A DNA stretch of 64,000 bases from Nemertoderma westbladi (lineage: Eukaryota > Animalia > Xenacoelomorpha). Made by a program: the position numbers and the translations under genes. Location: assembly GCA_032718475.1 (NCBI GenBank), contig JAUCBJ010007345.1, positions 30,294 to 94,293 of the forward strand, in the 5' to 3' direction. This document shows positions 21,316 through 52,315 of the stretch, one piece after another. Below the pieces are notes generated by a model. It saw nothing but the letters and a program-made list of their open reading frames with translations, made no database searches and was not told the origin of the DNA. Positions within the stretch are counted from its first letter, which is position 1. The number at the start of each line of letters is the position of its first letter.

Positions 21316-21393
21316 TATTTATAATATTATTTTTAATTTGATTATTATACTTAAATCCATCACCCTTACTATTTTAAAATTTCTTCCACCACC

Positions 21394-23101: not shown

Positions 23102-23533
23102 TCACACTGAATGTTTATTCTTCTTTATTTGAAGTTGCCCATTAGTCTCGATTTCATTGAAAATGTCTTCACCATCATCCGTATCATTGACGATGTCCTC
23201 TTCAAAGTCGCAGATATCTTCATACGCATAGCTATGTGTTTTATTCACGATGAGATAAATTTTTCGCTTAAGCGCTTGTTCTTTCATGGCTTGAGGTGTT
23301 TTCATCTTCATCAGAGCGCTCACACCCCCAACAAGGGTATCAATATCCTTATAATCATTCTTTTTTACAGCGCTGTCTACCCGTTCATTTTCTGCAATCG
23401 CGGGCAACCAGATTTTTTTCTCATCCATTTCTTAGCAGTGACTTTTACTGCTTCGTACGTCTTCAGCTGACTAGCGTTGTTCGGCATTTCCACTTTCATT
23501 AGATCCTCGTCCGCTAATTCATCAAACGCAGCC
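23102..23533 (-). pseudogene. Hypothetical gene, 5' end cut by LTR element
   Basis: ORF 23102-23428 extends upstream via frameshift (AAFDELADEDLMKVE) to the TGT at 23534. Confidence 0.5.
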
Positions 23534-24195
23534 TGTTAGCGTATTCAATTCCGCTAGCCAGCCCCACAAAGTAGGCTTTAAGCAATATTGGGAGCACGAG
23601 GTTGATTACCAATCAACCTCGTGTCACCCCAATAAACGGGGACAACAGGCCCCAGGGGAACACACACACAGCTGGGGTCAGAGGTTACACCTCCGGGAGA
23701 GAGAGAATAACAGCAGTGGAGGGGAAACACTCCCAGAGAGATGGGAGGCGAGAAGTGAGTTATTAGCCAATGGGGGGAAAGCATCGACTGAGTAATGTAA
23801 TGCAGCCAACGGTGCAATATATATTATCATTTGTTGCGCCAATTCATTCACTTCAGTAAGTCAGTTAGTTAGGACAGTACCAGAACTCTAATCACCATCT
23901 CCACCTACTGTCAGCAATATTAAGCCATTTTAGCGGTACACTTCAGAAACATTCACTTTAACTGTGCTATATCTTATCTGATTATATCATACCCTTATGT
24001 TTATATACATCGATCAATCAACAACCAGAACTCTTTTCACATACACACACGGTGGGGACGCGTAGATTAGACACCGGATAAATCGGGATTCTCGGATCCC
24101 GTCACAGTGATTAGAGCCAACAACTGCCCTGAGTAATTAGATCCGAGCAGCTGCCCTAGTAATTAGAACCCAAACACTAGCTGACAGTCAAAGCA

Positions 24196-27100: not shown

Positions 27101-28695
27101 TACCGGTACCAGCACAGCAGTATGACTACAGCATGCAAGGACATAACATATAGCCAGGGGAGGGGGGGATTATTGCGGATAGGTGCATGGGCCCCAATAT
27201 ATTAACATCAACCCCAGTACCAAACATACCGGTGGGGGGGGGGGGGGGGCAGGGTGACATTCCCCCATCACAATATCAACAATATACCCCAGTAGGAGCA
27301 AGAACAACAGACCCCTTGGACGAGAATAGATCATGCGACAACGAAATATGGAGGGGGCCGCTACCCCCACTGATATATCCGACGCAAAGGAAGACAGCAA
27401 ATAGGATGAACGGACCGCACCCAACAGGAGAAATTATACAGCATCCATCGAATCCATTGGAGGCACAAGCAATGGGAATGGCTACATTAATCGATGCCTT
27501 AAAAACCAGGATCGAGCTACCACCCGTGGAACCATTCAAATTCGATGGAAGTAGGCCGGAAGAATACCTACAGTTTTGGCGAATGTATAGTAATGAAATA
27601 TTAACAAAGAATTTGACGCAGGCGGAGTGCCTAAAGTATCTACAAGTGTATACAGGAGGCCCAGCATACGACATCGTGAGGCAATACCAGGGCATCGAGG
27701 GCAGCTTTACGACAGCATGGCGGGCGCTAGACAGGGAATACAGGCACCCGGCCAAGATCATCCGGCAAACCCTGAGAGGCATAACATCGGGTGGCCTACA
27801 GGATAACCCCGTTAGCATAAAGACATTCGCTAACAATGTCGAAAAGGCGCTAATCGTGCTAAAGACACTGGACGCGCCATACGAACTCAACGCGTCTAAC
27901 AACATCACTACGATAGTGCAGGCACTACCGATTTGGCTGCGCAATAAGTGGAGAAAAATTGCTTTCACCACTCGAGATAAGAAGGGCGCGGAACCGGGTT
28001 TAGAAGAGATGTCGAGCTTCTTAAACTATGAAGCTGAACTAATAACAGATCCAGTCTATAGTGAGGATAGCCTGGGAAAGGGACCAAGGACCGATTACCA
28101 CAGGCCGAAACCAGAGAACAACGCGTCGAATGCATTGCCAAAGCTCAGAGAGTTACTGCCGTACGCAGCGACGCAGGGGACTTCTAGTCCACAAGTAGCC
28201 GGGGGTAAGACCACATCATGGAGTGGACAGGGGAAAAATAACAACACAAATAAACATAACTCCAGCACGCCCAGTAGGCCGAACCCAAACAATAAGAATA
28301 GTAGGGACTTTGGTACAAATATAAGTGCGATATGCAACGCACTTTATAAGGATGGCTACAACCCAAAGAGCAAATGCCAATTACATACAAATGCACTTCA
28401 TCAGACCATGAACTGCAGGTACTGGCAGGCGCTACCCAGAGAAGATCAGGTAGAATACGTGAGGAGAAATAAAATCTGTTCGCGATGTGTGATGAGTGGA
28501 CATAGGGCTAACCAATGCAAGGAAACGCCAATCAAGTTCGGTCAAAATAAAGGTCAGACAATGGCAACAAGCACCGTGGGAGCAAAGAAGAGAGGAACGG
28601 TACTACTTGGGGTAGTACCAGTGCGAGTGATCGGAGAAGGCAATCGATCAGTGACCACACTGATGCTGGTCGACAGTGGTGCAGCCTTCACCTAA
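24196..28695 (+). pseudogene. gag: BEL/Pao gag with very long N-terminal extension, plus start of protease
   Basis: FKFDG..Y..FW (DUF1759-like), CQLH..H..C and CSRC...GH....C knuckles, LVDSGA; stops and poly-G frameshifts. Confidence 0.85.
25968..26222 (+). repeat. About four copies of a 60-bp coding repeat (GLVG..V.R.EVAGLSQPEG)
   Basis: ggggttgagccaacccgaagggggcctggtagg recurs every 60 bp. Confidence 0.9.
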
Positions 28696-31600
28696 GTTGA
28701 GGATTGGGTGGCCGAAGAGATAGGATTGAGAACGAGGCCAAGTAGAATGGCGGTAACAACCATCTCTAGCAAAGATGAGGTACTGGAGATGAGGACCGGA
28801 CGGTGCGCGATAGCAGCGGTGGCACCGGGATGCGACTATGGGGCGACCATCGACCCCATCCAGGTGATAGAGTCGATAAATATCAATGCCAGGCGGCCAA
28901 CCAACATCGAGGTCAAACAATATAGATTCCTGGACAGTATCGACTTCTCAATCCCAGAGGTGGACGTTAGGAAGGTATCCATCATAGTAGGAATGGACTG
29001 CCCAACGGCCCACGAGAGAATGCAAACGGTCTTTGGCGAAGACAGGCAGTGTGACCCGGTGGCGATATTAACACCATTCGGGTAGACGCTGATTGGCCCA
29101 ATTAAGAGTAAAATACCATTTAGGATGTTGGAGACATCAGGCTGCATGTTCGCGGAAACTATGCGAGAGATGGAGGATGAGGGCTGAGGAGCAGCTCAGG
29201 AGACTGCTCAGGCAGGATTTTGAGGGATTAAAAGAGACCGGGGTTGGAACCTCGGTAGAAGACAAGCAGGCTCTACAGAGCGTAAAGGAGTCGATGACAT
29301 GCGACGAGGGGCGGTATACCATAGGGATGGTATGGTAGCTACCGAAGCTACCGCTACCCGACAATAGAGGGATGGTACTCACGAGGCTTCGTAAGTTGAA
29401 GCAGACACTAAAACGGAGCACCGAGAAGAATGAGTACATCCACGTATATACGTATCCACGCATACAAGGATGGGCCGTAGAACTACCGGTCGACGAACCA
29501 AACACGGACAGGACCTATTACCTGCCACTCCACGTGGCTCTAGACCCGAAGAAAGGTAAACTGCTGATGGTAGTTGATGCATCAGCTAAAACCAACGGCA
29601 AATGCCTAAACGATTATCTGCTGGAGGGTCCCAACATCTACAACTCAGGGATCGAGGTCCTACTTAGATTCAGGAATGGGAAACACGCCTTCACCTGTGA
29701 GATAGAAGGCATGTTCAACCAAGTCCGTGTGACGGAAGAGGATAGCGACAGCCAACACTTCTTATGGTACAACGGCGATGAGGAACCGTCGACAATACCG
29801 ATGTACAAGATGATAGTACAGAATATGGGAGTCAAGTCGTCTTTGTTCACGACGACTATGGCTGTAAGAGACATAGTAAAGGGAAGGGAAGATAAATACA
29901 GCGCTAGGGCCGTCGATATGATTCAACGCGGCTTCTATGTAGACGACGGTATGGAGTCTGGAAACACGGTTAAGGAATTACTGGATACAGGGCGCGAGGT
30001 TTGCGACATCCTTAAGGGATCCGGCTTTAACCTAACCAAATTCCAATCCAGATCAGAGGAATTTATCAAGGCCATAAAGGATGAGAGACCAGAATTGACC
30101 ATGGATAATCCCACGACAGCTAAGGGACAGGACATGGCGACCAAGCAAATAGAGTCCCAACAGAAGGCACTGGGGATCGTGTGGAACAGAGAGACAGATG
30201 AGCTGAAGTACCAATTAAGCCAGGAGGGCGCAGACATCCACACGAAAAGGGGCTATGTGTCGTACATAGCAAGGATATACGATCCCCTAGGCCTAGCATC
30301 CCCATTATTAGTCACGGGGAAACAGATACTCAAGAGAGTATACAAACTAAAGGATGAGTGGGATGCAGGGATACCAGAGGAGATCAGCAAGCAGTGGTGT
30401 AAATGGACAGAGAGTTTAGAGCAGATGGGAACATACAGCATGCCACGAGTGTATTTCCCAGGGGAACATGACGAATCTGGATCTACATATGTTCTCCAAT
30501 GCGTCGTTAGAGGCATACGGAGTAGCACTCTACTTAGTACAACGAGAGGGGGTTGACAAGCCCAGACTTGCCTTCAGCAAGGCGAAGTCGATGCTACCAG
30601 ATTCAGCATCGGTCCCAAAACTCGAATTGACAGCTGCGAGGCTAGGAGTTAGGGCCACAGCCTACTTAATGGACGCTATTCCCAACATAGTGGAGACACA
30701 CTACTGGACGGTTTCCATGGTAGTGCTTGGTTGGCTACATAACGAAAGGACAAGATACCCTATATTCATCGCAAATAGGGTGGACGAAATAAGGGCGACC
30801 ACAGAACTGGAAAGGTGGCACTACTGCCCAACGGACGAGAACCCAGCGGACTTGTTATTGAGGGGCATGGCACGCCACACTTTCTTGAAGAAGGAAGTAT
30901 TGTGGCAACACGGGCCACAGTTTCTGAACAATAAGGAGGCCTGGCCGCCGATGAGAAAGGTGGACCCGGGCTCAGGAGAAGTAGCGTTAGAGGAAGAAGA
31001 GGGAGATTCAGAGGGGGAAGATATATATAGCCAAATGGTGAGGGAGATAAGGGACGTGCAACCAAAACCGGGAGAATTGTGCGACAACCCGACGGATAAA
31101 CTCCTTAGTTACAGCTCTAGTTGGTACAAGACCAAGAAATTAGTGGCGTACTGTAGAGCCTTCGGGGATTTCCTCAAGGGAGTCAGCAAGGACGTAAAAT
31201 TTAGAACAACCATCGATCTGGAGGGAGCGGCCAAAGCAGTCATCCACTACGAGTAGAGAAAGAACTACAGCAACGAGATGGAACGCGTCGGTAAACAACT
31301 GCATCTCCGATGGGACAGCGAGCTGATAGTGCTGCACCACAACTTAATGATGACGGGATTCTAGTAATGAACTCTAGGGTATTGAACAACAACAGTATTG
31401 TAATATCGCCAAAGCCCATCATCATACCTACTGGATCGCCGATAGTCCACCAGATTATATGGGACTCCCACAAGTTGATATTGCACGGGGACACCAACCG
31501 AACCCTCACGGAGATACGGAGGACCTTTTGGGTCAAACAGTTGAGGAAGAAGGTAAAGGCGGTAGTGGGGCAGTGCCAGACCTGCCGACGAGAGAAGGAG

Positions 31601-32060
31601 CGAGCCATACAGGAGATGGCACCACTACCGGCGAGTAGGGTAAGACAACATGACCCGCCATTTACGCATTGCGGTATGGATATGTTCGGGCCAATAAAGA
31701 TTAAGGTGATGCGACACACGGAGAAACGCTACGGTATTATATTCGTGTGTAACAACACGCGGGCTGTAGGGATAGAACTCGCCCAAGATGCAACCGCATC
31801 AGCATTCATTAATGCTCTAGAAAGGTTTAGAGACCACAATGGTGGGACGATCGCAGTAATATATTCTGACAGCGGGACCAACTTTGTGGGGGTGCAGAAC
31901 GAGATGGCAGAGGCCTTGGATATCCTGGAAGGGGAGGAAGTCAGGGCAGCCATGAGAAGGCGTCAGGTAAAGTGGGAAAGGAGGACGCCGTATGCTCCGC
32001 ATACCCTAGGATGCGTCGAGAGACTCGTGGGTAGTTCGAAGCGTCTGATGACGAATGACG
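28696..32060 (+). pseudogene. pol: BEL/Pao pol (RT, RNase H, integrase core), degenerate
   Basis: CLND.LL.GP, LLRFR, FYVDD, YDPLG, FS(N)AS..AYG, KLEL, NPAD..RG, H..H/CQTC, DMFGP, SDSGTNF, ERLV. Confidence 0.92.
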
Positions 32061-32323
32061 TAGGCCAGAATGTGGATTATGAAATAGAGTAATCCATTGG
32101 CAATAGTAAGTAGTAGCACAGTAGTAGGATTGAATTAAATTAAAATATTAAAAATAGAATAGGAAATTATAGAAAATTACAAATTATGGTAACAGTAGGA
32201 AAATTATTCTGGAACATAATTAAAGTAACGGACAAAATTGCAATCTAGGGTACAATTTGGTAGCTTCAGAATTTAAGTAGTAAAATTTAGGCTATAACTC
32301 AGAATTAAGTAAGGGATAGGCCA

Positions 32324-33550
32324 TTGTCGAACTGTACAGACCATCCTAATCTTATCACTCATCTGTACTGCGACTTGGCAAGGCACCACCTTACAGGTGA
32401 GCGAGTGAGAGAGTTCGAAATGGCGGGGAAACTGATCAGGAAGAGAAAGGCGGAGTCAGGAGGAAAGGAGATACTGGTGGATTTCACCAAGAGGCATCCG
32501 GAAGAGAAAACAAGGGGATACTACGAGCGGTTGGAGAGAGGTCACGGGGTGCGAGCGCTACAAGACCATTTCAGGGAAGTGCACAAACAGCGGCTGGTCG
32601 GGACCTACGGGACGCCGTCGCTGGACAATGCAATCTTCGAGCATTTCCACTATGTGGTGAAAGGAGACGAAGCGAAGTTCGGGATTCCGAAGTACATGAG
32701 AGAGCCACCGAGGAAAGATTGGAAGAGATCCGTCAGCAGGGGAGGATACATGATCCTAGACGATGAAGGAACCGTGGAAGACGAGGAGGGTTCGAGTAGA
32801 GGATCGGCGGGGTCGGCCAGAACCATACTCCTACATTTGGCCGCGCCAAATGGGGATATTTTCCTATTCGATCTGGGAATGTATGGGAAGAAAGACGGGC
32901 CAAAGTTGAACCGGTTGCCGAAGGTGGTGCAAATCCTATTGAGAGAGAAGTTGACGACGAAAGTGGGATCGGCGATTCGCGACGATGCGGAGAGAATCAT
33001 CGGTCCGGACACCCCCAATCTTCTGGACATGCAGACGGTCTTCATGGCTATGACAGCACCAGACGGGTTAGGACTATTGGAGAGCGCAGGCCATTGTGGA
33101 GCGGTGGCAATCGGCCAGCTTTTGGGGCTCGTGTGTCACAAACCAATGGACTGTGCAAAGTTCAGAGAAGAGTACGGAGCAGAGTTAGCAAACTCGCTGA
33201 AGTGGGGAGCAAGGCCAGGGAAACAAGAGGTGTATCAATTCCGGAGAGGAGCAATAAAGGTATATCAGAAGCGATATATCCTGCAGGAGGACTGGATAAT
33301 GATGGGTTTGCTAAACCTATTCATGACCATTGTCATTGGGAAGGAACCAACGGCATTCCTGCTATCGGGATCACCCCTGAGCTACATAAGAGCCTTTAAG
33401 ACGGCTTTCGAGGGTCTGGTAAACCACCCGGGGCTGAAGGGCGAGTCGGTGTACTATAACTGCCGACATCTGGTAGACAGGAACGTAGATACGCCATATC
33501 AGAGATGGGAGCAGCTAGAGGTGGATAGACGAGAAGCGAAGCGATTGTAA
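32324..33550 (+). CDS. Extra ORF: DEDDy (RNase D/WRN/EXD-like) 3'-5' exonuclease-like protein
   Basis: ILDDEG (ExoI), LLHLA..IFLFDL, LP..V..LL...KVG..I.DD (ExoII), LLDMQ, Y..RYILQED (ExoIII); first ATG at 32420. Confidence 0.7.
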   Translation: MSNCTDHPNLITHLYCDLARHHLTGERVREFEMAGKLIRKRKAESGGKEILVDFTKRHPEEKTRGYYERLERGHGVRALQDHFREVHKQRLVGTYGTPSLDNAIFEHFHYVVKGDEAKFGIPKYMREPPRKDWKRSVSRGGYMILDDEGTVEDEEGSSRGSAGSARTILLHLAAPNGDIFLFDLGMYGKKDGPKLNRLPKVVQILLREKLTTKVGSAIRDDAERIIGPDTPNLLDMQTVFMAMTAPDGLGLLESAGHCGAVAIGQLLGLVCHKPMDCAKFREEYGAELANSLKWGARPGKQEVYQFRRGAIKVYQKRYILQEDWIMMGLLNLFMTIVIGKEPTAFLLSGSPLSYIRAFKTAFEGLVNHPGLKGESVYYNCRHLVDRNVDTPYQRWEQLEVDRREAKRL

Positions 33551-33612
33551 GAAATCGCTAGACAGGAGAGGAGAGAGGCAGAAGAAAGGGAGGGGGAAGC
33601 TAGGGCACAGAC

Positions 33613-34038
33613 GGTGGTCACTATTTGAGGGCATTTCCATCTAATAAATTACCTAAATTAGATAATAATAATAATAATAATCGGAGAGATTATGGGTTAA
33701 TAGTAAATACTGATAAAGTGCATCTACCTGGTGTTCATTGGGTGGCTATATATATACGAGATAATGAAGCTGAATTATTTAATTCGTTTGGTTCAAAATA
33801 TCCAAACAGATGTATCAAAAAATGGCTTGAGAAAAATTCTACAAGGTGGTGTACTACTCGCAGGCAATTTCAAGACCCTAGAAGGACCACATGCGGGTTA
33901 TACTGTCTTTATTACTTGGTAAATCGAATTCACACAAACTATCCAATGAGAGCATTTACAAATAATATGGAAATAAATGAAATAATATTATATAAATGGC
34001 TTGTTAGTTATTATAAAATAAACCAACAAGCATTGTAA
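33613..34038 (+). pseudogene. Adenain-like protease, 5'-truncated
   Basis: PGVHWVA, FNSFG, QFQD..TTCGLYC. Confidence 0.9.
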
Positions 34039-34082
34039 TTAATCATTTAACTTTTGTTTATCTAAATATATTATCCATTAAA

Positions 34083-34651
34083 ATGGATAAAATGGATAAT
34101 ATCATTTTTGTCGATTTTAAATATTATAAGATAGACAATATGGAATATCTGATAGTATTTAAAGAATTTGCTATATTCGATTCTAATTACACTAAAACTA
34201 ATGTAAAGACGTTTTTAATTAAAGTACCCCCTGATATTAACTTATCGGCATTAGATAAAGCCCATATAAAAAATTTACAAGACATGACATTGCATTTACC
34301 CTGGAATTACGGCAACATTTCGCAAGATGACTTCAAAAAGTACAGAGACATCAATAATATAAAAAAAATATATATGTATTCTGGTTGATGAAGCTGGCAA
34401 TATTAATTACCGAACTTGATGTTCTCGCTCCAAAATTGATGGAGAAATTGGAGATATATCAACTATATTACAATTATTTAACCCTGTGTCCTTTTCACGT
34501 TAAATTTTCTACTGTAGAAAATAAATGCGCTTACCACTTAAACAGAAAGGACAACTGTCTGAGGTACTGCTCTGCAAAATGGGTCGGAGGGTATGAAATG
34601 AAACGATTTTTCGAGAGAAAGCAATTAACTGGGACTAATGATAATGACTAG
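34083..34651 (+). pseudogene. Polinton DEDD-like protein, frameshifted
   Basis: IIFVDF..FKEFA..VPP..LHLPWNYG; CPFH..CAYH..CL.YCS. Confidence 0.6.
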
Positions 34652-35574
34652 TGAGAAAGAAATAACTCTGGTGGAAGATGTACAGTAGGTTTACTCTAAG
34701 CATGTAATGTGATGGGATAATATAATTGTTTTAATGTCAACAAAAATAATAAAAACATTAAAATATAATTTTTTATATCTCAGTCTGACGCACGGGGGTA
34801 GGGTTTAGGTTTACACCCTCAAACACACACACCTACCGGTAGCTAGCCGACTAGCTAGCTAGCTGTTGCATCTGAGTTTAACTACCGGTAGCTGATTTTA
34901 CACACTGACATATAACAGGGCTAAACTGCAGAATGGCTCCCCTTCTAGACTGACAAAGTACCGTTGGCTTGCTTTAGCGTTACTAATAATAAAATTAAAT
35001 TAACTCGACATGTGGTTTGCGAATGCGGCATTAGAGTGGCCCACCTAACAATAGACCTACCGGTACTGTAGCGCCCTTGTAACAGTATACTGGTATAGTC
35101 GGATAGGGCATGCTGGTTCCTTCAATTTAAGGATTATTACACTTGAATGCTTTCAATTTTCTGTTTACAACTTTAATTGTCCTAATCTAGATTATTACTG
35201 AGGCTACACTACTACTGTCACATAGGTAAGCCTATACAGCTATAGTTAACTTTATGTGGGCCTTTCTCAAATGTAGGCTCAATATGGTTGACGGTTAACC
35301 TTTAGAACTCACGGTCCGGTGGGCCTACATTCAGCTAGTCATATAATGACTCCTCAACTGAAAGCCGACTAGCTCATTGATACAATAGGTGTGGCTAGCA
35401 GTATATAAAATCCTCTGCACTCAACATTCACTCCATGTTGTAGGCCTATATAAAATATAGTTAGTTTATTTATGTATTTGCTTTTTTTAAATTAGATATA
35501 AAATAGACAAAAACCTACTGCTACAGGTAACACATTAACACAAACAGACAGACTGATAACATTTAATGGATTAC

Positions 35575-37162
35575 ATACGAGTCTACGGGTGTATTCTTGG
35601 ATCTGTCGGTAGGCCAACAGGAGCTACTGATACTTCTGGTTCTGTCGCTTCTTCTTCCCATTGCTCTTCCCCAATAAAATTATCAAGTCTTATTTAGTGA
35701 GCTTCTTCAGCCTCTATACAAACGTTTGAACTGAAGTTTTTATTTGTTGTAAATGTTGTTTGCCTGCCTTCGCCTGTTTTATTTCTTAACATTATAGTAA
35801 ACTGACCATTTTCATTTTTTAAATGTAACTCCATTATATTTAAAGATGTAAAAAACAACTCTTCTGCTTCGAGATCAAACTTCAACATACAATCGCTAAC
35901 CCTATTTTCAATAAACACAAATGTGTGGCGTCACATAGAAAGGGTTCAATCCTCAGAAAAGTGATTTTGCAGAAAACGAGTTTAAAAATTTTCTTTTTCG
36001 AAAATTCCTTTTTTCAGAAAAATACACTTAAAAGATGTCGAAATTAAAATTTTTTTTTTAAAAATGTTCTACTTTTTGAGATGAATTCAAAAAACGACAC
36101 ATCAAAACAGCACGTGTTAATCAGGACGAGCTATATTAAATCAAAATTGAAGTTTCATTTATAAAATAATTTTAAGTATAAAACTACCATGCAATATTAT
36201 GTGACATGTAACAGCGTCACTACTTCTTTTCTACTTCTACTTCTCTCAAGCACCACCAAGAGGATCCCTTGTAAATGATTTTAATCAATTCAAATACCCT
36301 CCAATGCCGCATGGGGTATATCTTCTCCTGCCTAGTAAAATAACTGTACTTGATACAATCTTTGTATGATATAGAAATCCCTTACAGGCTCCTTTCTAAA
36401 CAATACAGCCCATCAATCTCAGGTACTTACAGCCTTCCTTATTCTTATGTAATCAACCAATCAAAGGGCCTAAAATTCATAGGATTACTCTGTGTTCACA
36501 TCGACAAAACATTATTGCTTCTCTACCTGCCGCCCTGCGGTATGTTATTGATTACCAACATTGAATTGATTTGAACATGGAATTATATTGTATCCTGGTT
36601 TTATTGTTTATTTTACTTTGATTTGAAAAATATGAAACATCCTGGTAGTGAGAAGAAACAAGCCATGTAATAGTTGCATCTGTTCAAAAATGTCACCATT
36701 GGATTCAGTGGCTTCGAAAAACCACATACACAAAAAATCGCTATCAAACTAGCCGTTTTAGAAAATTTAAAAATTAAGTCTTTGATGAAAAGTGCTAGTA
36801 GTGAAAAAAACAAGTCAGGCATTGGTTGCATCAGTTCAAAAATATTACCATCGGATTCAGCGGCTTCGAAAACCCACACACACAAAAAACCGCTATCAAA
36901 CTAGCCATTTTAAAAAATTATAAAATTTAAACACATTTTTGGTTTTCTCAGACGAAAAGTACTAGTTGTATTTATTTTGCCAATATTTCGAAAACGACAA
37001 AAGATGGCAAGTTGCGGTTTTCAGTTTCAGATTCTCCGTTAAATTTCGTACCAGAATCGGTAAAAAAGTGAAAATATATTTTTTTGGTATTGAACCCTTT
37101 CTATGTGACGCCACACAAATGTCACATAGTTAACAAAATGTCCAACATAAACTTTTCCCATG
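35575..37162 (-). pseudogene. Small accessory gene interrupted by Sola1-like element
   Basis: Excising 35923-37120 gives MGKVYVGHFVNYVTF|VFIENRVSDC... Confidence 0.65.
35923..37116. mobile_element. Non-autonomous DNA transposon, Sola1-like
   Basis: 28-bp TIR GTGTGGCGTCACATAGAAAGGGTTCAAT; 4-bp AAAT TSD (AWWT); internal duplication at about 36645-36925. Confidence 0.8.
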
Positions 37163-37677
37163 CGGATTAGCGATATATGCTCTGTTCATTATTCTATTCT
37201 ATTCTATTCTATTCTGAATGTAGTGAAATGCATAGCCGATGTTTTAATAATATGTATACGGGCTAGTAACAGATAGGTGGGCTTCGACTTTGACTATGAA
37301 TACCAGTACATAGCCATAAACTTTTCTCACCAGGCTTAGCGATGTGTAATTTAGCCAGCAATAGTGATGCTCTCTGCACACAGTCATAAGTAACAGATGC
37401 GCAACCGTAGCTCACTCGCGAGCTGCGATGCTTAGCTAGCTACTGTATCTGGGTATACTATGCATACTAGGCTGTTACAAGCAGTCGCTCTGCTGAAGTT
37501 AGTTAGTTTCCCCAACTAGTTGTTGATTTAAATAAAATATTCATAAATTTCTTCTCCCTCAAATTAATATATATATTTTATAGTAAAAAACTTCCATCAC
37601 CAAACAACAATAAATTTCACTCTCTCTAATTATATTTTATATCTAAAAACCCACCACCACCACCACCAAACAACAAT

Positions 37678-38200
37678 AAATTATTAAACAGTTTGTTGAA
37701 TATAGGATAATATATATGAAATTTAAACAGAGAACACATTTAATGTACATTTACCGGTATAGAAACAGCAAACAACAACAATATTTTTTATACTATTTAT
37801 ACTTTACAGTTATTAACATATTTCTGGTTCGTATGAAATTTCTAGTTTGACATTATCAAATATAACATAAAACCCGATATTGTTTATAAGTAAACCTATA
37901 GATTATGGTGTCAATACTAAAAATATAAGTACACAAATTAATAGATTTAAAAATCAAATTAATGATTGTTTTTTAAAATATATGCTTTTTAACTTTATTA
38001 AAATTATATTTTCTACCAAGAATTGTTATTCGTCCATTTGTAAACATTAATAAGGTTGCACCAAATACCTTATATATAAACTGATTAGGTTTGAGTATAA
38101 TTTTACCTGACAATTGATTTTTTAATTCTTTTAAATTAAGTCCTTAAATGATCTGCTTACAACTTATATTTTTATTCACTATTTGATAATTCATCATCAT
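37678..38200 (-). pseudogene. TATA-box-binding protein (TBP)-like gene, decayed
   Basis: Manual translation: YQIVNKNIS..LNLKEL..P.QFIYK..ATLLMFTNGRITILG (repeat 1); ISYEPEI..IVVVCCFYTGKCTL..YPIF (repeat 2); not in ORF track because of stops. Confidence 0.7.
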
Positions 38201-41200
38201 CTTTCGGTTCTTCATAAATTGGTATATTTGATTTTTTTATAGGTTTTTTGAGGTTTGTTTTATAGTGTCCCCAAGGAAGTGATTTTTATTAAGCCAATAA
38301 AGTTTATCATCAAAGCTACTGAGTGCAAATTTATTTTGCCTTAAGGTTTAAATACGATGTAATTTAGATTTAAATCTGTGTATGTTTTTTTATTTCTTCA
38401 TTTGAGTTATATGCTTCTTAATAATATTCTTCATGAGTATTATTCGTTTCCACAATAGGTCTTGTAAAAGCTTTTGCTCTGCGAATATTTCTGTTATTCC
38501 ATTCCAAAATTGAATATAATTTTGGTCTTAAAAATACTCCTTGTTTAATTTCACGTGAGGCTAGTTCATCTTTACAGTAATAAAGTCTTGATTTATTTTT
38601 ATTACTATAACGCGGGTGATCCGGAGGGTAAATGGATGTATCTAAAATATTATTTTTAATTAATGCTTTTAAAAAATTACTCTGCGATGTATTATAATAA
38701 CAACCTATTAAAGATTCTGTATCTGATGCAACAATTTCAATACGGCAGTTTAATTCTTTCTCAATAGGCAGTAATCTATTGTAATACAGTTCATACATAT
38801 CAAGTTTAGCCAAATCCAACACCGCGCTACCAATAAATATAGGCTTATCTAGAGTTACTGTGTCTTTCACAAATAAATGACCCGATAATGTTTTATTGTA
38901 TATTTTAAATTGTTCATGATTAATACGTTTCACCAATTGGTCACATTTATCATTGCTATTTGCGATACAAAAGTTACATTGGTCCCGTATCTTTTCTATA
39001 GTCTTACCAATTAAAGATTTATTAAGCAGCTTTGCGACAGCCATTTCAATGTAACTTTTTGCTAGTCGTCTTTGATTAATATTAAAATCGATTTAATTTT
39101 TAAATACAAATTCTTGTTGAAAAGAATATAATTTATGTAGTTTAGTAACAATTAATCCTTGTTTTATATAAAATTTTAACAGTTTCAAATGTAAATGATA
39201 AAATTCTTTATCAAATTGTGTCAGCAAGAGTTTTGGAGTAGACATCTTATATTTACCGGAGGTGCCTCTTTGTATCGATAAGTTATTAAATTGTTCCCTC
39301 ATATAAGGTGAAAGCATTGATTCATTTATACTTAAATGCTCAGAGGCTAACGGTAATTGTAATGTTTGATCGTGAATAGCTTTGGGGTATTTTAATTCAA
39401 ATATTAAAAAATATCCAGTAGATCTGTCATTGTCTAAATCTTCCAAGTACTCGATTAGTTTTTCTGGAATTACATTCTCTAAATGTTTAATACTTACTTC
39501 TTTGAATTGTGAGGTGGATAGTTTTTTACTTACATTCCCAGAATATAATGAGTTGAAATCAATATTAAAAATATGGCATTCTTCCTCAGTAGAATCATAT
39601 GTAATTGTTTTGGGTATATTTGATTCTATACAATGCTTACAACAAAATGAAACACCACCCCTAATTGATTTTTGAAAATCTCTGTATGTCTGATAATCCT
39701 TTATTAATTCTATTTTACATTTATTGTATTTTAGAGCGCAATCATAGGTAAATGATGTGATACTAGAGTAAAAAACCACTTCTAAATCGTAATTTTGTTT
39801 CCTAAAACAAAACATTCCTAAAATTCTCAAATATATCAACAAGCAAGCAAACATCGAGTTTTAAATAGGCTAAAAGATAAAAAAAAAGATCTTTGAGATT
39901 CACGCAGTCTAATTCTACCTTCTACCAGCAAACCTATAATCTTCAATTGTACATGTTTTTTGGCAAACCTGTATCATTAAATTTATTTATATCTGTCAAG
40001 TACTCGTATGGAAATACTCCTTTTCGATTAACTGTTATTCAGGTTTGGATAAAAATATTTCATTTCTTGTAGAGTAATAGGTAAAATTGAGCTTATATCA
40101 TGACTCGCTACATCCTTTGTTGAACACTAAACTAAATTACTTAGGGAAAAGCTTAACAATTGATATGTGCCTAAGATACGTAACTCAATTTTTTTAGAAG
40201 TGTTTTTAATTGGGATAAAAGCACTCAGTAAAATATATCGTTCTGTATTTCTCAGTATAACCTTTATATCCCTATGTGTGTATTTCTTATCTCTAAATCC
40301 GGTTTGTAATATACAATGTATATTGTAGTGATTGCCATTGTACCCGCAAAGTACATACAGGTATCGTTTCAATGATAAACTCCGGTTACACCTATTATAG
40401 GCTGCCGCAATATATTTACCTGTAATATATGAATGATGTCTATTTTTCCCTACATTATTATTTAAAGTAACATTACAATAAAAACCAATTTTTGCCTGTT
40501 CAAAATTTACAAAATTAATATTAGTAAATAATATAGTTTTATGGGTATATAATTCTGACCAGCAACATAACTAGGTTAAATCAGTATATAATGAATCTAA
40601 GAAATCTTGAATACAATTATAATTATTATTATTTGACTTTACGAATGTTTTCAAATGACATTTTGGAGGATCAATTAATTCACTATTTGGAACAATTAAA
40701 TAAGTGGCAGCACACGGTATATGCTCCTGTATAAATTGATTATTAACTGAGGGTTGTAAGATATATTCTATATCAAAGTAGGTGACAAACAATGGGGATA
40801 AGGTTCTAACTAAATTTGTAAAACTAATGTGTGTTCTTTTTTTATTAGGCAGTTTCTCTCGTTGACTTCTTCCTTGGTAACAGGCGAGACGGTGTAGTTG
40901 GAGAACTTCCTTTCGATAAAAATGCCCCAAACACCTTTCACAATATTGTCTATTGTGGATATGAAGAGCTTTCGTATTCAGCAATCGATTCAAGTTAGTT
41001 ATGCAAACATAATGATTCAGTTTAGGTACATTGTTATTTTTTACTACAAGTAATATATTTAATAACTCTTTATCTGGTGTTATTTTACTAAATGGAGGTT
41101 GTCTTAATATAGATACGGGGGTCTGTTTGTTTTTGTTATTCCAGCATAATAAATTAATTATATATTTCGAATTTTGTTTTTCAAAAAGTTAAATCGCTAG

Positions 41201-42193
41201 CTGCCACTCTTTTGGATAATCATTTTTCCCGTTGTCAAAATTGAAATATCTCATATAATTTTTGTACTGGGAAGTATGGTATTTGTGCGTTTTCACTTTG
41301 CTACTAAATTTTGCGGTTATAATAGCCCATTTGAAACAGTCATTATCAGCCATTTGTATATTTATTGTATAATTTTTACTCGATAGAGCCTTAAGTAATT
41401 CCATCTATCCATGTCCCTTATATAGTAACGACCTATACTTAAATTCAGCTAATTTAATTTCAACTCTTAATAAAGATTTAATACGCCAGCTCAAACCACA
41501 TATATTAAACATGGCTATATTTTGTAATATATTTTCAAGTACATACTCAAACCATAGATCAAAACTTTGTGATACAGTATTAATAGCACCACCGGAAGAA
41601 TTAAAATAAAAGGTTTCTAATTGCTCACCTTCTGAAAAATGTGTTATGTACATTAATACATTTAGACCTAACCACAGTCTAAGAACATTAATTTCTTTCA
41701 ATCTGTCTAATATTAACTGAAGAATATTACCTCGAATTTGCGCTAATGCTGTTTCTACATCGGGATAATCTCTAGAAGTTGGGAGGTCATGGACATAAAT
41801 TTCAAGACGATTATCGTGAGCTTCTTGTTCCCGCGTAAAAATTGTTGCACATGTACCAAGAGCCACCCTTAAGTTTTTTCTAGATATTAAATTTTTATGT
41901 TGCGGAGATTTACGCTTTCTTGTTTAATAACATTTCAAGTGACAGTCGTGTCATAAATAATTCTCATATGTATACTCTTTATTACAGGTAGAACAAGTCA
42001 ATTGATAGGTGCAAAACTCCATTTCTTTACAGCCCGTAGTTGATTCATGTCGTTTACAAATTTAACCTCATAAAGTTGTGACATGACACTTAAAACAAGA
42101 ATAACCTTCAAAATGCGACTTTAGGTGACGTAAATAATTATGTCTAGTTACATTCATATGACAGAATGAACAACATTTTACTATTTTATCCAT
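38172..42193 (-). pseudogene. Protein-primed family B DNA polymerase (pPolB) with N-terminal Zn fingers
   Basis: DNDCFKWA..HYVCI, YFDIE, SIRGG, DFNSLY, KLLNKSLIGK, SDTES, LRPKLYS, FDDK, LPWGHY; many disablements. Confidence 0.93.
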
Positions 42194-42784: not shown

Positions 42785-43130
42785 ATGTCTTACAAAATTA
42801 ACGACTTTGAAGGGCAACAATTTGTCAGCGTTTGGGAAGCGGATGATATAGGTAGACAGCGGAAGGGTGTTCTATATTACGATGGGTTGAATCTCAGAGC
42901 GGATGAATTCTGTTTGCTCGAATTTAACATAGATAAGAATGTTAAGGAGAATATCGACGAGGTTAGTTTAAGGTACACATTGATCGTTAACGAAAACGGG
43001 ATATATTTGTCCCACAACTTCGACACCAAGGTTATTTTCATCCCTCAAAACAACGCAAATGTCAAGATAATTAAGGAATTACAGAAATACGCGGGCCATG
43101 ATATTCCGACTGGGTGTGACTGGGTGGAGC
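42785..43130 (+). pseudogene. Hypothetical gene divergent from pPolB, truncated by RTE fragment
   Basis: ATG-initiated globular-looking ORF running into LINE sequence. Confidence 0.5.
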
Positions 43131-43328: not shown

Positions 43329-43583
43329 GATGACCCCCCCTCCCTGTCATGAAACGGACTTTTCCTGAGATTGTAGATACAGTACTTTTAGGGCTACTGA
43401 TTGGTGCTGGGAGTTGTTTGGTGTACCGGTATGTGTAATTCTGTGTTTTTGTTAACCTATGACTCTTTATTATTTGTACCTACAGCCTGACCGTTCGACA
43501 TGTTTCTTGTTGTCAGATTGCAGATTAAAGGTTTTTTAGTTGTTTAGTAGCTGATGCCCTTTTCTCGCGATAGATTCGTGACA

Positions 43584-43600
43584 TGGTGCGGTGACCCGGG
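43584..43600 (+). promoter_or_regulatory. Primer-binding site, tRNA-His-like
   Basis: TGGTGCGGTGACCCGGG directly after 5' LTR, close to the His PBS TGGTGCCGTGAC. Confidence 0.7.
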
Positions 43601-44062
43601 AACAAAGAAAATATTAATGCGAACCAGGGAAATTTAAAGCTTATCACATAGCCAGATACTGAGATAGCTGCATAGTCCTAACTGCCTGAATACTGATGTA
43701 ATGCCCACTGGGAGCCAGGGGTACTGGTTAAAGTTATACAGTTATAATGGTGTCGCTGTTGGTTGGTGTGGTACCGGTACAAATCTTACCCTACTGCTGT
43801 ACTGTTACATAGGCCTATGCATGGCAGCATGGCTTATTTTGCAATTTATTGATGGTGACTCGGATCATATGATCTGCTGGACTACTGGAGTTTCAAAGGG
43901 AGAAACAACTTTGGATCTATCAGATAATCAGAGGTGAGATTACTGATAGAAATTATTTCTGTCACCAATTGTTACTTCAATATACATTGCACATAGGCCC
44001 ACTGCTTCGGAATACTGAATACCGGTATTTATATACAGATATAGGCCTACATATATCACAGT

Positions 44063-47000
44063 ATGTCTGGGAAAATAAGGAAATTAATTGGACCAGCCAA
44101 ATCCCGGCTGGTAAATCTGATTCAACAAAGTAAACAACTTACAAATACTAGGCTACCTGCTGGTCAAACTTTGGAAAATTATACAGAATTTAGAGAGGAT
44201 ATAGTGAAGATATCTAATAAAATAGATATACAGGTAGAGACAATGCAGCAATGTAGGCATGATTTTTTAGAATTATTGGACAGTTTGGATGCTGATCATG
44301 CTGAACATCAAATTTATAAACAAGTTGCTTATGGTGATAATGGGTTTTTAGCGATTGTAGATTGTGGGCAAGATTGTTTGGATGACTTAAGGGCCCGATT
44401 AGATACTGTTGACCGGTACCAGATGATGGCTGTGCAAGCACAGACTCATGTTCTACCTACCATGTCTACCCATACCGGTACTCCTTCTACTAATCCAGTT
44501 TTACCAGGCCCATATCACCGTGAACAGAATGCTCGGCTGCCAAAAATTGAACTACCTAAATTTTCTGGAGATAACATAAGTAAATGGGTTGATTATTGGG
44601 CAATTTTTGATTCAGCCATACATTCCAGAACAGATATACCAATACCCCAGAAATTTTCGTATTTGAAAGCCTCTTTAATTGGTAATGCTGCAGCTGTTGT
44701 TATGGGATTTCCCCTTGATGAGCAGAGTTACAATGATGCTGTTAGCTTACTAAAGAAGCGTTACGGTAATCAGACTTTACAAAAAACGGCACTTTATAAA
44801 GAATGGGCATCTTTGAATTTGACTAGTAACAAAGTATATGACATTAGAAAATTTGTAGACAGTGCTCAACGGATTTTCAGGCAATTGAAAGGCTTGGGTG
44901 ATGATCTTTTCTCCAGTGAGCTAGTGGCTTCACAGTTGCGCGATAAACTGCCAGATATGGTATTGATTGAACTTGGAACTGAACATCCTATTTATGAGCC
45001 CTGGAGTTTAAATGAAATTTTTGATGGTTTAGAAAAATATTTTAATATCCGTGAACATTTGCCAGAAATGACTAACAATGCAGAGGTTGTTGTAGGTAGA
45101 CCTAGAGAAGCAAGTAGACATGTTGATTTTACTGATGATTATAGGGTTAAGTCTACTTCTAGTACACTTATGGCTACCTCCACTAGGCCTACAACTTCTT
45201 TGGGCTCTGCTGTAGTAAATGTAGGATGTGTATTTTGTAATGGGAGTCATTACAATGAGGATTGTCAGAGATATTCAACTCTGAGAGAGAGGACAGACAA
45301 ATTAAAGGCAATGGGAAGGTGTTTCATATGTTTGAGAGGTAAACATTGTGCTCAGGATTGCCATCAACGTGATAAGTTTTGTGCTCATTGTAAAAGAACA
45401 AGGCACCATAATCGAAGTATTTGTCCTAAGAAGTTTGGAAATCCAGACCAATCTATAAAGCCTGAAAGAAAACCCAATGACTTAAGAAATTCAATATATC
45501 CAAATTTAGCTAAGGGTAAGTCTGGGTCTGTTTTGTCTGCTGCAGTCAGTGAACAGACAAGTCATGCATTATTGAGTACTGATGATGATTCATTTTTCCA
45601 TACTGCATCTATTAAGGTAAGAAGACCAGGATCAGATGAAATACTACCAGCTAGATTGATATTGGATTCTTGTTCTAATCGGACATTTATTACTGATAAT
45701 TTGGCAAAGAGTTTGGGTATAAGGCAAATGGGTCAGCAGACATTACAGATGAGAGTCTTTGGTACTGACCGATGTATCTCAATCGATACATATTTTGGTG
45801 AAATTGAAATATTTCTTAAGGATGGGACAACAATGTCTATGATGGTTAATACACATTCTGATCTTACTGGAGATATTGTACGAGAGGAATTAGCTGCAGA
45901 AGATATGAGAGTTATAAAGCAGTACCCTAGGGATCTATTGGCAGATTCAATTTCTAAGGGTAAAGACATTTTCAAACCAGATATATTGGTAGGAATGGAC
46001 TATTTTTGGGAGTTCCTTCGCTCAAAGAGATGTGTTCCTGAAGTACAACTCCCATCGGGCCTATTGCTTATGCCTTCCACACTTGGACTCCTTCTTGGGG
46101 GATGTGCAGGCAACACTGCTTTCTCAAAACGTGGCAGGTGTACACAAACATTGTTTACTCCTTCAGTTGGTGGTCCAATCGTGGTCCCCTCTGTGTATGA
46201 TAAGAAGGATATTAATATGACAGATTTTTGGTCTTTGGAAGCAGTGGGCATTACTGACGATCCAACTAGTGAGGATGATACTGCTATGGAGACTCTTCAA
46301 AAGAGTATTACTTTTATAGATGGTCGATATCATGTCATTTGGCCATGGAAATATCCCAGTCCAAAGTTGCCAAGTAATTATGGTCTTGCACTTGGCAGGT
46401 TAAAGTCATTATCTGGCCGTTTAATAAAGAATATTAAACTGTTAAATGACTACTCAAATATAATTAGTAACCAATTAATATGTGGAATGATTGAGAAGGT
46501 TGGCATTGGGGATAATATTCATGGGGATAGATTAATCCACTATATACCACATCACCCAGTTTTTAACCCAGGCTCAGAGACTACAAAGGTACGTATTGTA
46601 TTTGATGCTTCTTCCAAAACAAGCAAAAATTTGAACAGTCTCAATGACTGTCTCCTCTGTGGGCCAAACTTAGTCATAAACTTATCTGGTCAGTTATTGC
46701 GATTTAGAATAGCTAAAATAGCAATTATTGCTGATATAGAAAAGGCCTTTCTCAACATAGGCCTTAACGAACAGGACCGTGATGTTTGTCGTTTTCTTTG
46801 GTTTAAGGATCCTTCTAACCCTGCTGTTCAGGGTAATGTGGAATGTTATAGATTTACACGTGTTCCTTTTGGTATAGTAGCAAGTTTGTTTCTGTTAATG
46901 GGTATTCTGCTGCTCTATCATCTAAACCAGTATTCACTGAAGCATTCTAAATATATTCCATTATGTAATGAGATGGCTGATAATATTTATGTTGATAACA

Positions 47001-49816
47001 TGTTCTTTTCAGCAGATTCAGCAGATGAGGGTTTTGATAAATACCAGGAATCAAAACTTTGTCTCTCACAAGCATCACTAAACTTGAGGCAATGGGTATC
47101 TAACTCAAAGGACTTAATGAAACTGATACCAGCAGATGATCATACTCCTGTTTCAATTGTCAAATTTTTAGGCTATATGTGGAATATAGAAGATGATACT
47201 ATTGTTGTGAAGAATGTACATCCTTTTAAGGTTCGAGATGACCTTACTAAGAGACTTATATTGAATATGGTTGCAAGTTTTTTTGACCCAATTGGTTTGT
47301 GGTCACCATGCTTGCTGCCTGGGAAGCTTCTGTTTCAAGAGACATGGAAGCATCATTTTGATTGGGATGAAATACTTCCACCTAACATTCAAAGAGAGTG
47401 GAAGAAATGTGTGGAATATATGAGTCATGTCAATGGTTGCCGTCCACGAAATATTTTTACAGATGCAAATTCTGGTGAAGATATATCCTACCAGTTGATT
47501 GCATTTACAGATGCTTCGAAAGTGGCTTACGGTGTTGCAGTGTATTTGAGAAAGGTTTCTGCAAACTATATACAAGCACGGTTATGTTATGCTAAATCAC
47601 GCATGGTCTCTATTAAGAAAGTTGATAAATCTACAGATGAAAAGGGTATACGAATCCCAAGGTTAGAATTAATTGGAATACAACTAGGAATCAAATGTTT
47701 GACATTTGTTATCAAACAGATTCATCTCAGAATAGCAGACACTTACCTACTTTCTGATTCACAAGTTGCCCTCCATTGGGTTCACTCTACTAAACCCTTG
47801 CAGACATTTATTTCTAATAGAGTAAAGGAAATACGCAAATTGGAAGGGGTAAAATTCAATTATGTGCCCAGTGCCCAAAACCCGGCAGATCTACTGACTC
47901 GGGGAGTCAGCTCAGCAGAGCTTAATAATATGAGATTTTGGTGGCATGGGCCTGAATGGCTTGAATTGGATGTAATTCATTGGCCAAGTATGATCTTACC
48001 ACAGTTATCAGTGGAGGAAAATCTTTCAGTTACAGTTGAAGAAATTGATATTACTAGTGTCTCACTGTCTACTCATCCTATCGTTATACATCAGTACCCA
48101 TTGGATATTGACCCAAAGAAGTATTCATCATATAATAAACTTCTGCGAATAACTGTATATTGTTTCAAATTTCTACTAGCTATAATGAAACCAACACATA
48201 GTTTGCCTATTGTGTCATTAGGGGCATCAATAACTGCATCTGATATTATGTGTATTGAAAATTTATGGATATTAGCTATTCAGAGAATGCATTATTGGGA
48301 TGTTTTTAATGCATTAATCACAAAATCAGTTAAAAATAATATGGTACATCAGCTTGGTTTATTCCTTGATGACTATGGTCTAGTGGTCTAAGGGTACTTG
48401 TGGAGCAAGTTCCCATTATTGTTACCAAAAATGGATTATGTGACAAGGCTTATTATTAGTGACATACATGAAAGAATAATGCATGGGAGGGTTAATCACA
48501 CACTCAGTAATCTTAGGAAAAGGTTTTGGGTTCCTCAAGGGCGCTCTATTGTCCATCAGATTCTTAAATCCTGTTTTATATGCAAGCGGTATGGTAATGG
48601 ACCATATCGTCTACCTCTATTTAGTCGCCTGCCAGAGGAACGCCTTGGAGCTCATAATCCACCCTTCAGTTTAGTAGGACTTGATTATTTTGGATATTTC
48701 GTAACTCGTGATGACTCAGTTTCAGAAGGGAATTCTAAGGTATGGGTGTGCTTATTCACTTGTCTAGTGACGAGGGGAGTTCATCTGGAAGTGGTCTATG
48801 ATATGTCCACAGAGGAATTTATTTTAGCCTTGCAAAGATTCTGTGCTCGGCGTGGATCTCCTCAACAAATCCTGTCTGATAATGCTTCACAGTTTAAACT
48901 GGCGGATTTGGTTCTTAGAAATTTCTGGGATGAACTGCCAACCAACCCCAATATTTCAGCATATCTCAATAATGAACGCATTATGTGGAAGTTTATTCCA
49001 GCATTATCGCCTTGGCAGGGAGGAATTTATGAGCGAATTGTGGGTCTTGTGAAAGTGGTTCTTCGAAAAACACTTAGTAAGAAACTCTTTTACCCACATC
49101 AGTTGCAAACAGTCTTATGCCAAGTGGAGTATATGATTAACTCCCGACCTTTAACTTATGTCCCAAATGAAGTTGGAGATAAACCTGTGATCTGCCCTAA
49201 TGATTTTTTAATACCAGGACATTCCAATTCTATTCAGATACTAGAAGATGATAGTGATTTGAGTGACCCTACATATATTCCTCAGCAGTCATCTGTTTCG
49301 AATGTTAGAGATTCATTCAAGAAGATGAATCATATGTTGAATTATTTTTGGACAGTATGGAAAGATGACTATTTAATGGCTCTTCAGGAACGGAAAGATT
49401 ATTGCCATAAAAGTAGTCGGCGTAGTGTTGATGAGGAACCAAAAGTCGGAGATGTAGTGTTGTTGAAGGAGGATGGTGTTTCACGGTGTCTATGGAAAAC
49501 TGTTACAATTTATAAGATTAACAGAAGTAAAGACTCCATGATTCGCTCTGTAGAAGTACTTTTACCTAACAAGGATCTTAATGCAAAAAAGCGATTTTTA
49601 ACACGCCCAATTAATTTACTTTATCCTCTGGAACTTTCGATCCAGGACCCCTTTCAACTCCAAGTAAAAGATAACCATAGTTCTGGGACAGGACCTACTC
49701 GCCATCAACCTGTTCGGAAGGCAGCAATTAAATGTCGTCAGCGTATTGGTGAACTTTTAAATAATGACATTCTCAACATCTCTTCTGGGGAGTGTCATGA
49801 AACGGACTTTTCCTGA
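44063..49816 (+). CDS. gag-pol: BEL/Pao Gag-Pol polyprotein with one in-frame stop (48389-48391)
   Basis: LPKFSG, three Cys/His knuckles, ILDSCS, YVDN, FTDAS, RLEL, NPAD, HGR..C..C, DYFG, SDNA, YERIV, VGDVV, RPI..LYPLE; both ORFs in the same frame. Confidence 0.95.
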
Positions 49817-50031
49817 GATTGTAGATACAGTACTTTTAGGGCTACTGATTGGTGCTGGGAGTTGTTTGGTGTACCGGTATGTGTAATTCTGTGTTTTTGT
49901 TAACCTATGACTCTTTATTATTTGTACCTACAGCCTGACCGTTCGACATGTTTCTTGTTGTCAGATTGCAGATTAAAGGTTTTTTAGTTGTTTAGTAGCT
50001 GATGCCCTTTTCTCGCGATAGATTCGTGACA

Positions 50032-51600: not shown

Positions 51601-52130
51601 TTATACCACTCTTTGTAAGACGTGTTGTGCTGTGCTGGCAAAAAATTCAAATAGGCTAATATTTAAGGAAAATATAGCGTTTTTTTGTGATTCTCCTCAA
51701 AAATTTATATTTTTTTGAAAAAAACAGAGTTTACCTTACGTAGCTAATACAACTTAATTGAAACAGCATCTGCCATAGTCTACTAATTGAAACAGCATCT
51801 GCCATAGTCTACTATGTTAAAGACTTTACCGAACGGTTCTTGCCCCTCCCACTTACTATGGTTACCATTGTGTATATGTAACATATGTTACCGTTTTTTA
51901 TATGTAACATATGTGGTATAAGGCAAGTCCACAGAAGTAATTTAATTAATTCACATCTACTAGTTGGCGCTTGACCTTGAACCACAATAGGTAAAACCCG
52001 TCATAGTAAGTGGGTGGGCTGCAGACCTTTGTTAAAGTGTTTAACATGATAGACTATGACAGACGCAACAAATAAAAAATAAGGTAAATAAACAGTGACT
52101 AGCGCCAGACAACAATACTACAATTCTACA

Positions 52131-52313
52131 CTTATTGCTAAGCACCAACATGGGGCGAGCCACGAAGTGATTGAAGTCTTAGCATGTGGGTGCCATTGAC
52201 GAGTTGTCTGTCGTTGTCGTCATCGTTGTTGTTGTCTGTTGTCGTCGTCATCGTTGTTGTTGTCTGTCGTCGTCGTAAATTTTTGATTTTTGACTACTAA
52301 TTCGGTTATACTT
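52131..52313 (+). mobile_element. DINE-1/Helentron-associated-like element 5' end; second copy at 60383-60739
   Basis: GCTAAG..CTTAGC short inverted repeat followed by GTC/GTT microsatellite; class is inference. Confidence 0.45.
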
Positions 52314-52315
52314 GG

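Follow-up and report, generated by a model that had tools for sequence, protein, structure and literature searches.

The locus considered here raises the question of whether a Maverick/Polinton element in an animal genome carries a relative of TBP and, if so, what such a protein would do for the element. The 64,000-nucleotide stretch of Nemertoderma westbladi DNA analysed in this work (hereafter the window, with positions counted from its first letter) holds a decayed minus-strand reading frame that an initial annotation, made from the sequence alone, had read as an intronless two-repeat TBP gene packed against the end of the protein-primed family B DNA polymerase (pPolB) of the element, and as a captured basal factor redirecting host RNA polymerase II (Pol II) to viral promoters. 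The features at issue are these:

37690 to 38200, minus strand: broken TBP-like gene of about 170 codons, with two saddle repeats and without an N-terminal extension; 3' end approximate
37976 to 38182, minus strand: repeat 1 of the TBP-like gene, in which N9, F41 (KPNQF), F53 (MF-TNG), G56 and G62 align with conserved TBP positions
37701 to 37915, minus strand: repeat 2, frame-broken, with the YEPE stirrup at 37833-37822, F.TGK at 37764-37750 and YPI at 37709-37701
38172 to 42020, minus strand: broken pPolB; 5' end approximate
38236 to 38264, minus strand: two TATAAA words, at -64 and -41 from the ATG at 38200, inside the pPolB coding tail

The motifs quoted in the initial annotation are all present on the minus strand where it had placed them. 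Those of the first repeat (IVN..S, LNL..L and IYK..ATLLMF.NGRI.I.G), together with KPNQF, lie in the single frame opened at 38200, SYEPE (37836-37822) and F.TGK.T.L (37764-37741) share a second frame, and YPI falls in a third. This copy of the gene is dead: two in-frame stops (38146-38144 and 37975-37973) interrupt its first half, and the reading frame of its second half is lost at three or more points (near 37.89, 37.82-37.79 and 37.75 kb). Its exact start is uncertain, the candidates being three tandem ATGs (38200, 38197 and 38194), the first of which varies among sister copies, and a further one at 38215. The GC content of the gene is 21.5%, as against 29.1% in pPolB. No intron needs to be invoked, because the gene is collinear with TBPs across the alignment, and the claim that it is intronless is thus upheld. 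A 10-residue insertion in repeat 2, considered as a candidate feature, was dropped, since the profile alignments are collinear.

The assignment to TBP draws on several profile comparisons. When its first half was searched against the 24,736 families of Pfam, PF00352 was the sole match (E 0.0093, 16.2 bits), and it was again the only family matched by a read-through of the gene, in which X was placed at the stops and at one frame break (E 0.0014, 18.9 bits). The gathering score of PF00352 is 22.9 bits and both matches lie below it, so that the frame-aware search recommended by the initial annotation finds the expected family and no other, at a score short of the formal cut-off; the locus is filed here as TBP-like, and not as a full PF00352 member, for that reason. 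An independent profile was built from 11 archaeal TBPs, and is biased in that most of its members were chosen by the pattern around YEPE. This profile, which recovers solved TBPs at E 3e-42 or better, gave the read-through 9.1 bits, a score reached by none of 2000 shuffles; when the halves were scored separately, 3 and 2 shuffles in 2000 did as well. Among 2136 six-frame tiles of the window, four of the top five fell on the TBP-like locus. Both halves therefore beat shuffled sequence and align collinearly to a two-repeat archaeal profile, which sustains the earlier claim of two repeats. An hhalign comparison with the same profile returned a probability of 3% and E 0.014. The second half alone matched no Pfam family, single-sequence searches of the PDB with the window gene found no TBP, and an NCBIfam search with it returned nothing. 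The gene is no more than 15-24% identical to archaeal and viral TBPs. Judged on this evidence the homology to TBP is real but remote, and the window copy fails formal family membership.

Scores that are all weak and under cut-off, together with the lack of any relative of the window gene in sets of 5.8 billion proteins and of 1.84 billion representatives, lend some weight to the view that the frame is a retrocopy of some host gene of the TBP family, passively carried and without function, or that it resembles TBP by chance, in DNA as A/T-rich as this; a search of viral contigs and plasmids with the gene was equally negative. Against such an origin stands, in the first place, the occurrence of both repeats in the right order and at the right spacing, and two further lines of evidence, a relative in an unrelated Maverick and the behaviour of sister copies, bear on it below.

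The residues retained by the gene were examined in an alignment with archaeal and prokaryote-virus TBPs. Among invariant columns it keeps N9, F53, G56 and G62, and among near-invariant ones F41, L51, YEPE (Y123-E126), F146 and G149. The initial annotation had pointed to the DNA-intercalating Phe residues as a check on its reading: F41, F53 and F146 align with three of the four wedge positions, and the fourth, which follows YEPE, lies in the frame-broken stretch and is unreadable. The base-contacting Asn of repeat 1 is the invariant N9, and that of repeat 2 aligns with Thr98 in the decayed copy. The acidic second stirrup, YEPE, is aligned and kept, and we take the TFIIB-binding acidic residues to lie within it. 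The gene resembles cellular TBPs (PF00352; PDB 1d3u, 1ais, 1pcz and 1tbp) in its two collinear repeats, N9, F41, F53, YEPE, F146 and G-K turns, and departs from them in a shortened FPG/IYR segment in the first repeat and in replacement of the T-G Thr and of the second Asn. Structure prediction returned models of low confidence. A single-sequence model had a pLDDT of 48, and a repeat-1 model built from the two Maverick sequences only (pLDDT 58.5) gave the order strand-helix-four strands-helix of a TBP repeat; compared with VIA, this low-confidence repeat-1 model had its best Z score, 5.5, to RNase H3, an enzyme with a TBP-like N-terminal domain, and a Z of 3.3 to TBP. Foldseek returned no match at E<=0.001 with the low-confidence models.

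The second of those Maverick sequences comes from a survey of 97 loci with a related pPolB (17 viral loci and 80 of 447 confirmed metagenome stretches), which together hold 3476 ORFs. The best match to the read-through among these ORFs was at 13047-13310 of one locus, L022 (E 0.0018), followed by one at E 0.0098, and a pairwise comparison of the window gene with the L022 ORF gave E 7e-7. This ORF in turn matches solved TBPs, presumably of the Pyrococcus type, at E 1.5e-5 and PF00352 at E 0.014, and its comparison with Atlas TBP clusters gave 0.95, with ten of the ten best named matches in one family and a recognition value of 2028, under the 2300 mark. It is cut by the end of the locus after one repeat, and only the first repeat is known. 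The locus also carries an intact pPolB of 1615 residues and KilA-N and PLA2-like genes. Both Maverick sequences share three traits that cellular TBPs do not have, namely an NxN in the first strand, a KPxQ ahead of the first of the Phe positions and a loop of reduced length. The L022 ORF has Leu at the first Phe position and Met at the Thr of the first T-G motif, where the window gene has Leu; it also has Asn at an invariant Val, as does the window gene in the pairwise alignment, its Asn being one residue off in the multiple alignment. The closest relative found for the window gene is a gene of another Maverick, and capture from the host, as the initial annotation would have it, gains no support from these comparisons. 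The presence of shared non-TBP signatures in an unrelated element argues against a retrocopy or a chance likeness.

At the other 96 of the 97 loci, many of them short pieces, no such gene was seen. At least 600 nt lie downstream of the longest plus-strand ORF in 66 of the 97, and one in 97 is not to be read as an estimate of frequency; the absence at 96 loci suggests that the gene is not needed by the pPolB group as a whole. PF00352 was absent from the four viral records searched among the 17. The L022 piece itself had no relative in viral contigs or plasmids apart from one phage match at E 4, and the L022 pPolB had none in viral contigs.

If the gene belongs to the element, it should be present beyond one dead copy, and four public DNA runs carrying one organism label, from three samples, were compared over the region in this regard. 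The TBP-like segment is covered at pPolB-like depth in all four. Summed word depth, which is not copy number, ranged in run X2 from 124,000 to 195,000 over the gene, from 65,000 to 340,000 over pPolB and from 300 to 460 over a neighbouring insert, and runs X1 and X3 show the same pattern. Contigs over 741 nt of the region number 204, 315, 73 and 4 in the four runs, and such depths and counts point to many divergent copies. The pPolB/TBP junction is bridged by contigs in X1 (38069-38281), X3 (38058-38258) and X5 (37850-38484). At both first-half stops, all the depth in all four runs reads another letter, and sister copies vary in length around the second-half breaks; the lesions of the window copy are hence largely private to it. 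One X3 contig (37682-37785, depth 910) is nearly identical to the window form. The segment is thus not confined to the window copy, in agreement with the suggestion that it is a family-wide component. Of the two outcomes that the initial annotation named as refuting its reading, lack of any TBP profile match and absence of the segment from other copies, neither was obtained, although the profile match lies under the Pfam cut-off.

The differences among copies carry a codon signature. In the single-frame stretch, 21 of the 31 listed differences fall at codon position 3 (p 9e-5), as do 13 of 19 listed sites that split sister copies (p 0.002) and 8 of 12 listed sites at which the window differs from nearly all of them (p 0.02). 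The pPolB control, taken from the best 40 of 441 differences, shows no excess (11 of 28 at third positions, p 0.31), and is not like for like, consisting mostly of changes private to the window copy. On these data the TBP-like gene is a real, family-wide gene of an animal-type Maverick and has been under selection. The third-position bias and the stops unshared by sister copies speak against a retrocopy or chance likeness, a reading that, taking the three lines of evidence together, we regard as largely refuted and give only a very slight chance of being right.

The position of the gene relative to pPolB is as the initial annotation had described it. The pPolB stop (38174-38172) falls within codons 9-10 of the TBP-like frame, its end 29 nt downstream of the ATG at 38200, and the first TBP strand (IVN) is encoded across the stop. 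Because the stop is inside the TBP-like frame in this way, the overlap holds regardless of which of the nearby ATGs is used. The identity of the polymerase is clear: it has 32 relatives at E<=1e-10 (best 5.5e-80), several of them with PF03175, and its tail ends in the conserved LPxGHY when matched to intact pPolB. A pPolB-TBP fusion was considered and rejected, there being a stop in the TBP frame 14 codons before 38200 and no sign of frameshifting.

This same-strand overlap with a polymerase gene is an argument for a different role, in which the protein would bend DNA or bind single strands to assist protein-primed replication at the ends of the element, and would take no part in transcription. 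Precedent for such an activity may be found in the divergent TBP of Giardia, which lacks three of the four Phe and binds single-stranded DNA, according to the available text of PMC12209930. The window gene, on the other hand, retains its YEPE stirrup and the Phe at each readable position. In L022, moreover, five ORFs separate the TBP-like gene from pPolB, over a distance of about 5.5 kb, so that the coupling of the two genes is not conserved. A replication helper seems to us improbable.

The element to which the two genes belong is broken up in the window, and its remaining pieces (family A) are as follows:

35570 to 37161, minus strand: orphan gene next to the TBP-like gene on its downstream side, interrupted by a transposon insert; a diverged homologue lies at 10081-10356
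35917 to 37122, no strand assigned: unrelated low-copy DNA-transposon insert, with perfect 26-nt TIRs (35925-35950 and 37089-37114) and an 8-nt target duplication
33604 to 34651, plus strand: family-A adenain-type protease, which matches PF00770 above its cut-off (E 4.5e-5), with the ORFs behind it; convergent with the TBP-pPolB block
640 to 7924, plus strand: second family-A piece, with ATPase, integrase-like, capsid-block and protease ORFs, the candidate targets of the factor

Since the transposon insert merely splits the orphan gene, the minus-strand block of orphan, TBP-like and pPolB genes is tied to the family-A protease block. The latter matches the piece at 640-10332, which is cut before the TBP position, and the other family-A pieces in the window likewise end short of the TBP-like part of the element. 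The ATPase gives weak Pox_A32 and AAA matches, under cut-off. The candidate integrase and capsid ORFs (1923-3030 and 5384-6607) have no Pfam match, and we assume their labels, retroviral-type for the integrase and double jelly-roll for the capsid, from motifs and gene order. With pPolB, adenain protease and packaging ATPase all present, the element is best described, from its gene content, as a probable Maverick/Polinton of the adintovirus-like type. Neither terminal inverted repeats nor a target duplication marking its ends was found in the window, where other insertions interrupt the copies. Position 37117 was examined as a possible element end and discarded, since the step in depth there is the edge of the inserted transposon.

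What a TBP relative would contribute to such an element may now be considered. We give about an even chance to the view that a two-repeat TBP relative found throughout the Maverick family works for the element as a promoter-recognition factor of its own, bringing in TFIIB and Pol II from the host. The gene would be made together with the polymerase module, as suggested by the common strand, the overlap and the two TATAAA words just upstream, and its product would wedge into a variant TATA word. The altered DNA face, with an added Asn near the first DNA-contact Asn, a lost T-G Thr and a shorter loop, would shift its sequence preference, and the kept acidic stirrup would bind TFIIB and thereby bring host Pol II to the genes of the element, of which those for the capsid and for packaging are the likely targets. 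Because no RNA polymerase gene was seen in the element, host Pol II is the polymerase with which the factor would have to work; nor was any herpes-type helper protein identified.

The retention of YEPE while several DNA-facing residues differ from cellular TBP is also what might be expected of a TBP decoy, a protein that keeps the TFIIB-facing stirrup, binds DNA poorly and ties up TFIIB, NC2 or Mot1/BTAF1, thus damping host transcription or antiviral responses, and it fits with this role that no target promoter word has been established. The Phe residues that can be read, three in all, and the first Asn are nonetheless retained, which would be needless in a pure decoy, and damping the host Pol II machinery would presumably hurt an element without an RNA polymerase of its own. 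We therefore hold a decoy to be unlikely. A general, non-specific TBP substitute, allowing Pol II (or Pol III) to work on ordinary TATA boxes in cells with little host TBP or with paralogues in its place, as for instance in the germ line, would agree with the abundance of canonical TATAAA in the element (44 in 32,252 bases) and with the fact that no special word stood out. On the other hand, identity of 15-24% and changed DNA-facing residues would make an unchanged specificity improbable, and we hold a substitute of this sort to be unlikely as well.

The two TATAAA words ahead of the TBP-like gene are a possible internal promoter; given their frequency in the element, two in 100 nt has P ~0.008, for a region chosen after the fact, and the first of the two is also explained by conserved H-Y-K codons of pPolB. 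No promoter word passed a corrected test, either as an exact word or with one free position, and the redirection of Pol II proposed in the initial annotation gains no support here. The best candidate, AxATACAT, precedes five of the nine starts in the piece at 640-7924, two of those five sites lying in coding ends, and 7 of its 8 sites in the piece are on the coding strand. Random draws, 200 for each word length, did as well or better 6 times for words of 8 letters, 47 times for those of 6 and 74 times for those of 7. A third copy also has the word ahead of its protease, though the entire spacer is conserved there too, and the word was not found ahead of the six downstream genes of L022. The spacer between capsid stop and protease start is in its own right nearly invariant (6555-6650 against ~55660-55755) in copies that are 75% identical overall, which suggests regulatory constraint. 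A more specific version of the proposal, namely a widespread clade of animal Mavericks with a distinct minimal viral TBP (NxN, KPxQ and TFIIB stirrup) that reads a private word such as (A/T)ATACAT and directs TFIIB and Pol II to capsid and packaging genes, is put forward as tentative and somewhat unlikely. Were it to hold, it would amount to a one-protein switch for late transcription, reached independently of the six-protein solution of herpesviruses. In L022, TATAAA and a duplicated splice-acceptor-like leader are found at 10170-10257 and 11380-11511, before the KilA-N gene and an unnamed ORF.

Virus-encoded TBP-like factors are known, and for Mavericks they have barely been noted in print. 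EBV BcRF1 and HCMV UL87 are, with KSHV ORF24, TBP mimics of beta- and gammaherpesviruses, and African swine fever virus B263R is a virus-encoded TBP homologue; to our knowledge, the usual Maverick gene set includes no transcription factor of such kind. In the literature searched, which leaves out most subscription papers, we found no study of a Maverick TBP. The nearest precedent is the label 'TBP' in the legend to Fig. 5 of Starrett et al. (2021; PMC8502044; 10.1101/697771), on MELD viruses with an adintovirus-like PolB, which likewise points to a TBP-like gene in a pPolB-bearing Polinton-like element. That label stands in a section on non-animal datasets and the accessible text does not discuss it, whereas the window gene belongs to an endogenous family of high copy number and shows signs of selection in its codon positions. 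The maps in that paper may show the gene in animal elements as well. Among mirusviruses, 59% of genomes carry a TBP homologue, and these viruses, according to the portion of PMC10132985 available, encode RNA polymerase subunits of their own, whereas none were seen in the Maverick element. TBP is also reported in heliorhodopsin elements in the available part of PMC10675990.

The most instructive comparison is with KSHV ORF24, for which the accessible part of a recent preprint (10.1101/2025.08.25.672222) reports a requirement for four TBP-like Phe, an extra Asn where TBP is hydrophobic and recognition of TATTWAA late promoters, as well as the absence of the acidic residues through which TBP binds TFIIB. 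The Maverick protein would resemble it in combining a viral TBP fold, conserved Phe wedges and an added Asn on the DNA face with the use of host Pol II, as we propose for the former and as that source describes for the latter. In contrast, ORF24 is there a large multi-domain protein that binds Pol II directly and has five viral partners, and the Maverick protein is a bare core of some 170 residues with YEPE kept. The Maverick protein would then be a small natural TBP with a re-tuned DNA face and a conserved TFIIB surface. A family-wide selected TBP-like gene offers a handle on the switching-on of particle genes in endogenous Mavericks and on the possible persistence of a viral phase, in the form of a protein to assay and a promoter word to seek. 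Its presence may also mark those Maverick families with a regulated late phase from those without.

Several other features of the window deserve mention. Just downstream of the TBP-like gene, at 37580-37680, a unit of about 60 nt occurs twice (TTATTGTTGTTTGGTG ... TATAAAA), a possible terminator or else a possible promoter of the orphan gene. The non-coding segments at 34820-35400 and 37150-37560, which flank the orphan gene, are rich in short palindromes (CTAGCTAG and TACCGGTA), possibly binding sites for host factors, and the transposon inserted in that gene contains an internal duplication of 147 nt (36632-36930). On the other side of pPolB, and divergent from it, lies an orphan ORF (42785-43126, plus strand) with no Pfam match, cut by a retroelement fragment. 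A second Maverick family, with capsid-block-like ORFs, is represented on the minus strand at 15527-23431 and 51784-53112; no TBP-like sequence was seen in these pieces, and the former includes a tandem duplication in which 16061-18436 and 18769-21042 are 93% identical. Two BEL/Pao retrotransposons are inserted in Maverick sequence, at ~24181-33550 and 43345-50031, and the second must be recent, because its 239-nt LTR matches are 100% identical. Finally, a satellite with more than 40 copies of a 44-nt unit extends from 58304 to beyond 59900.
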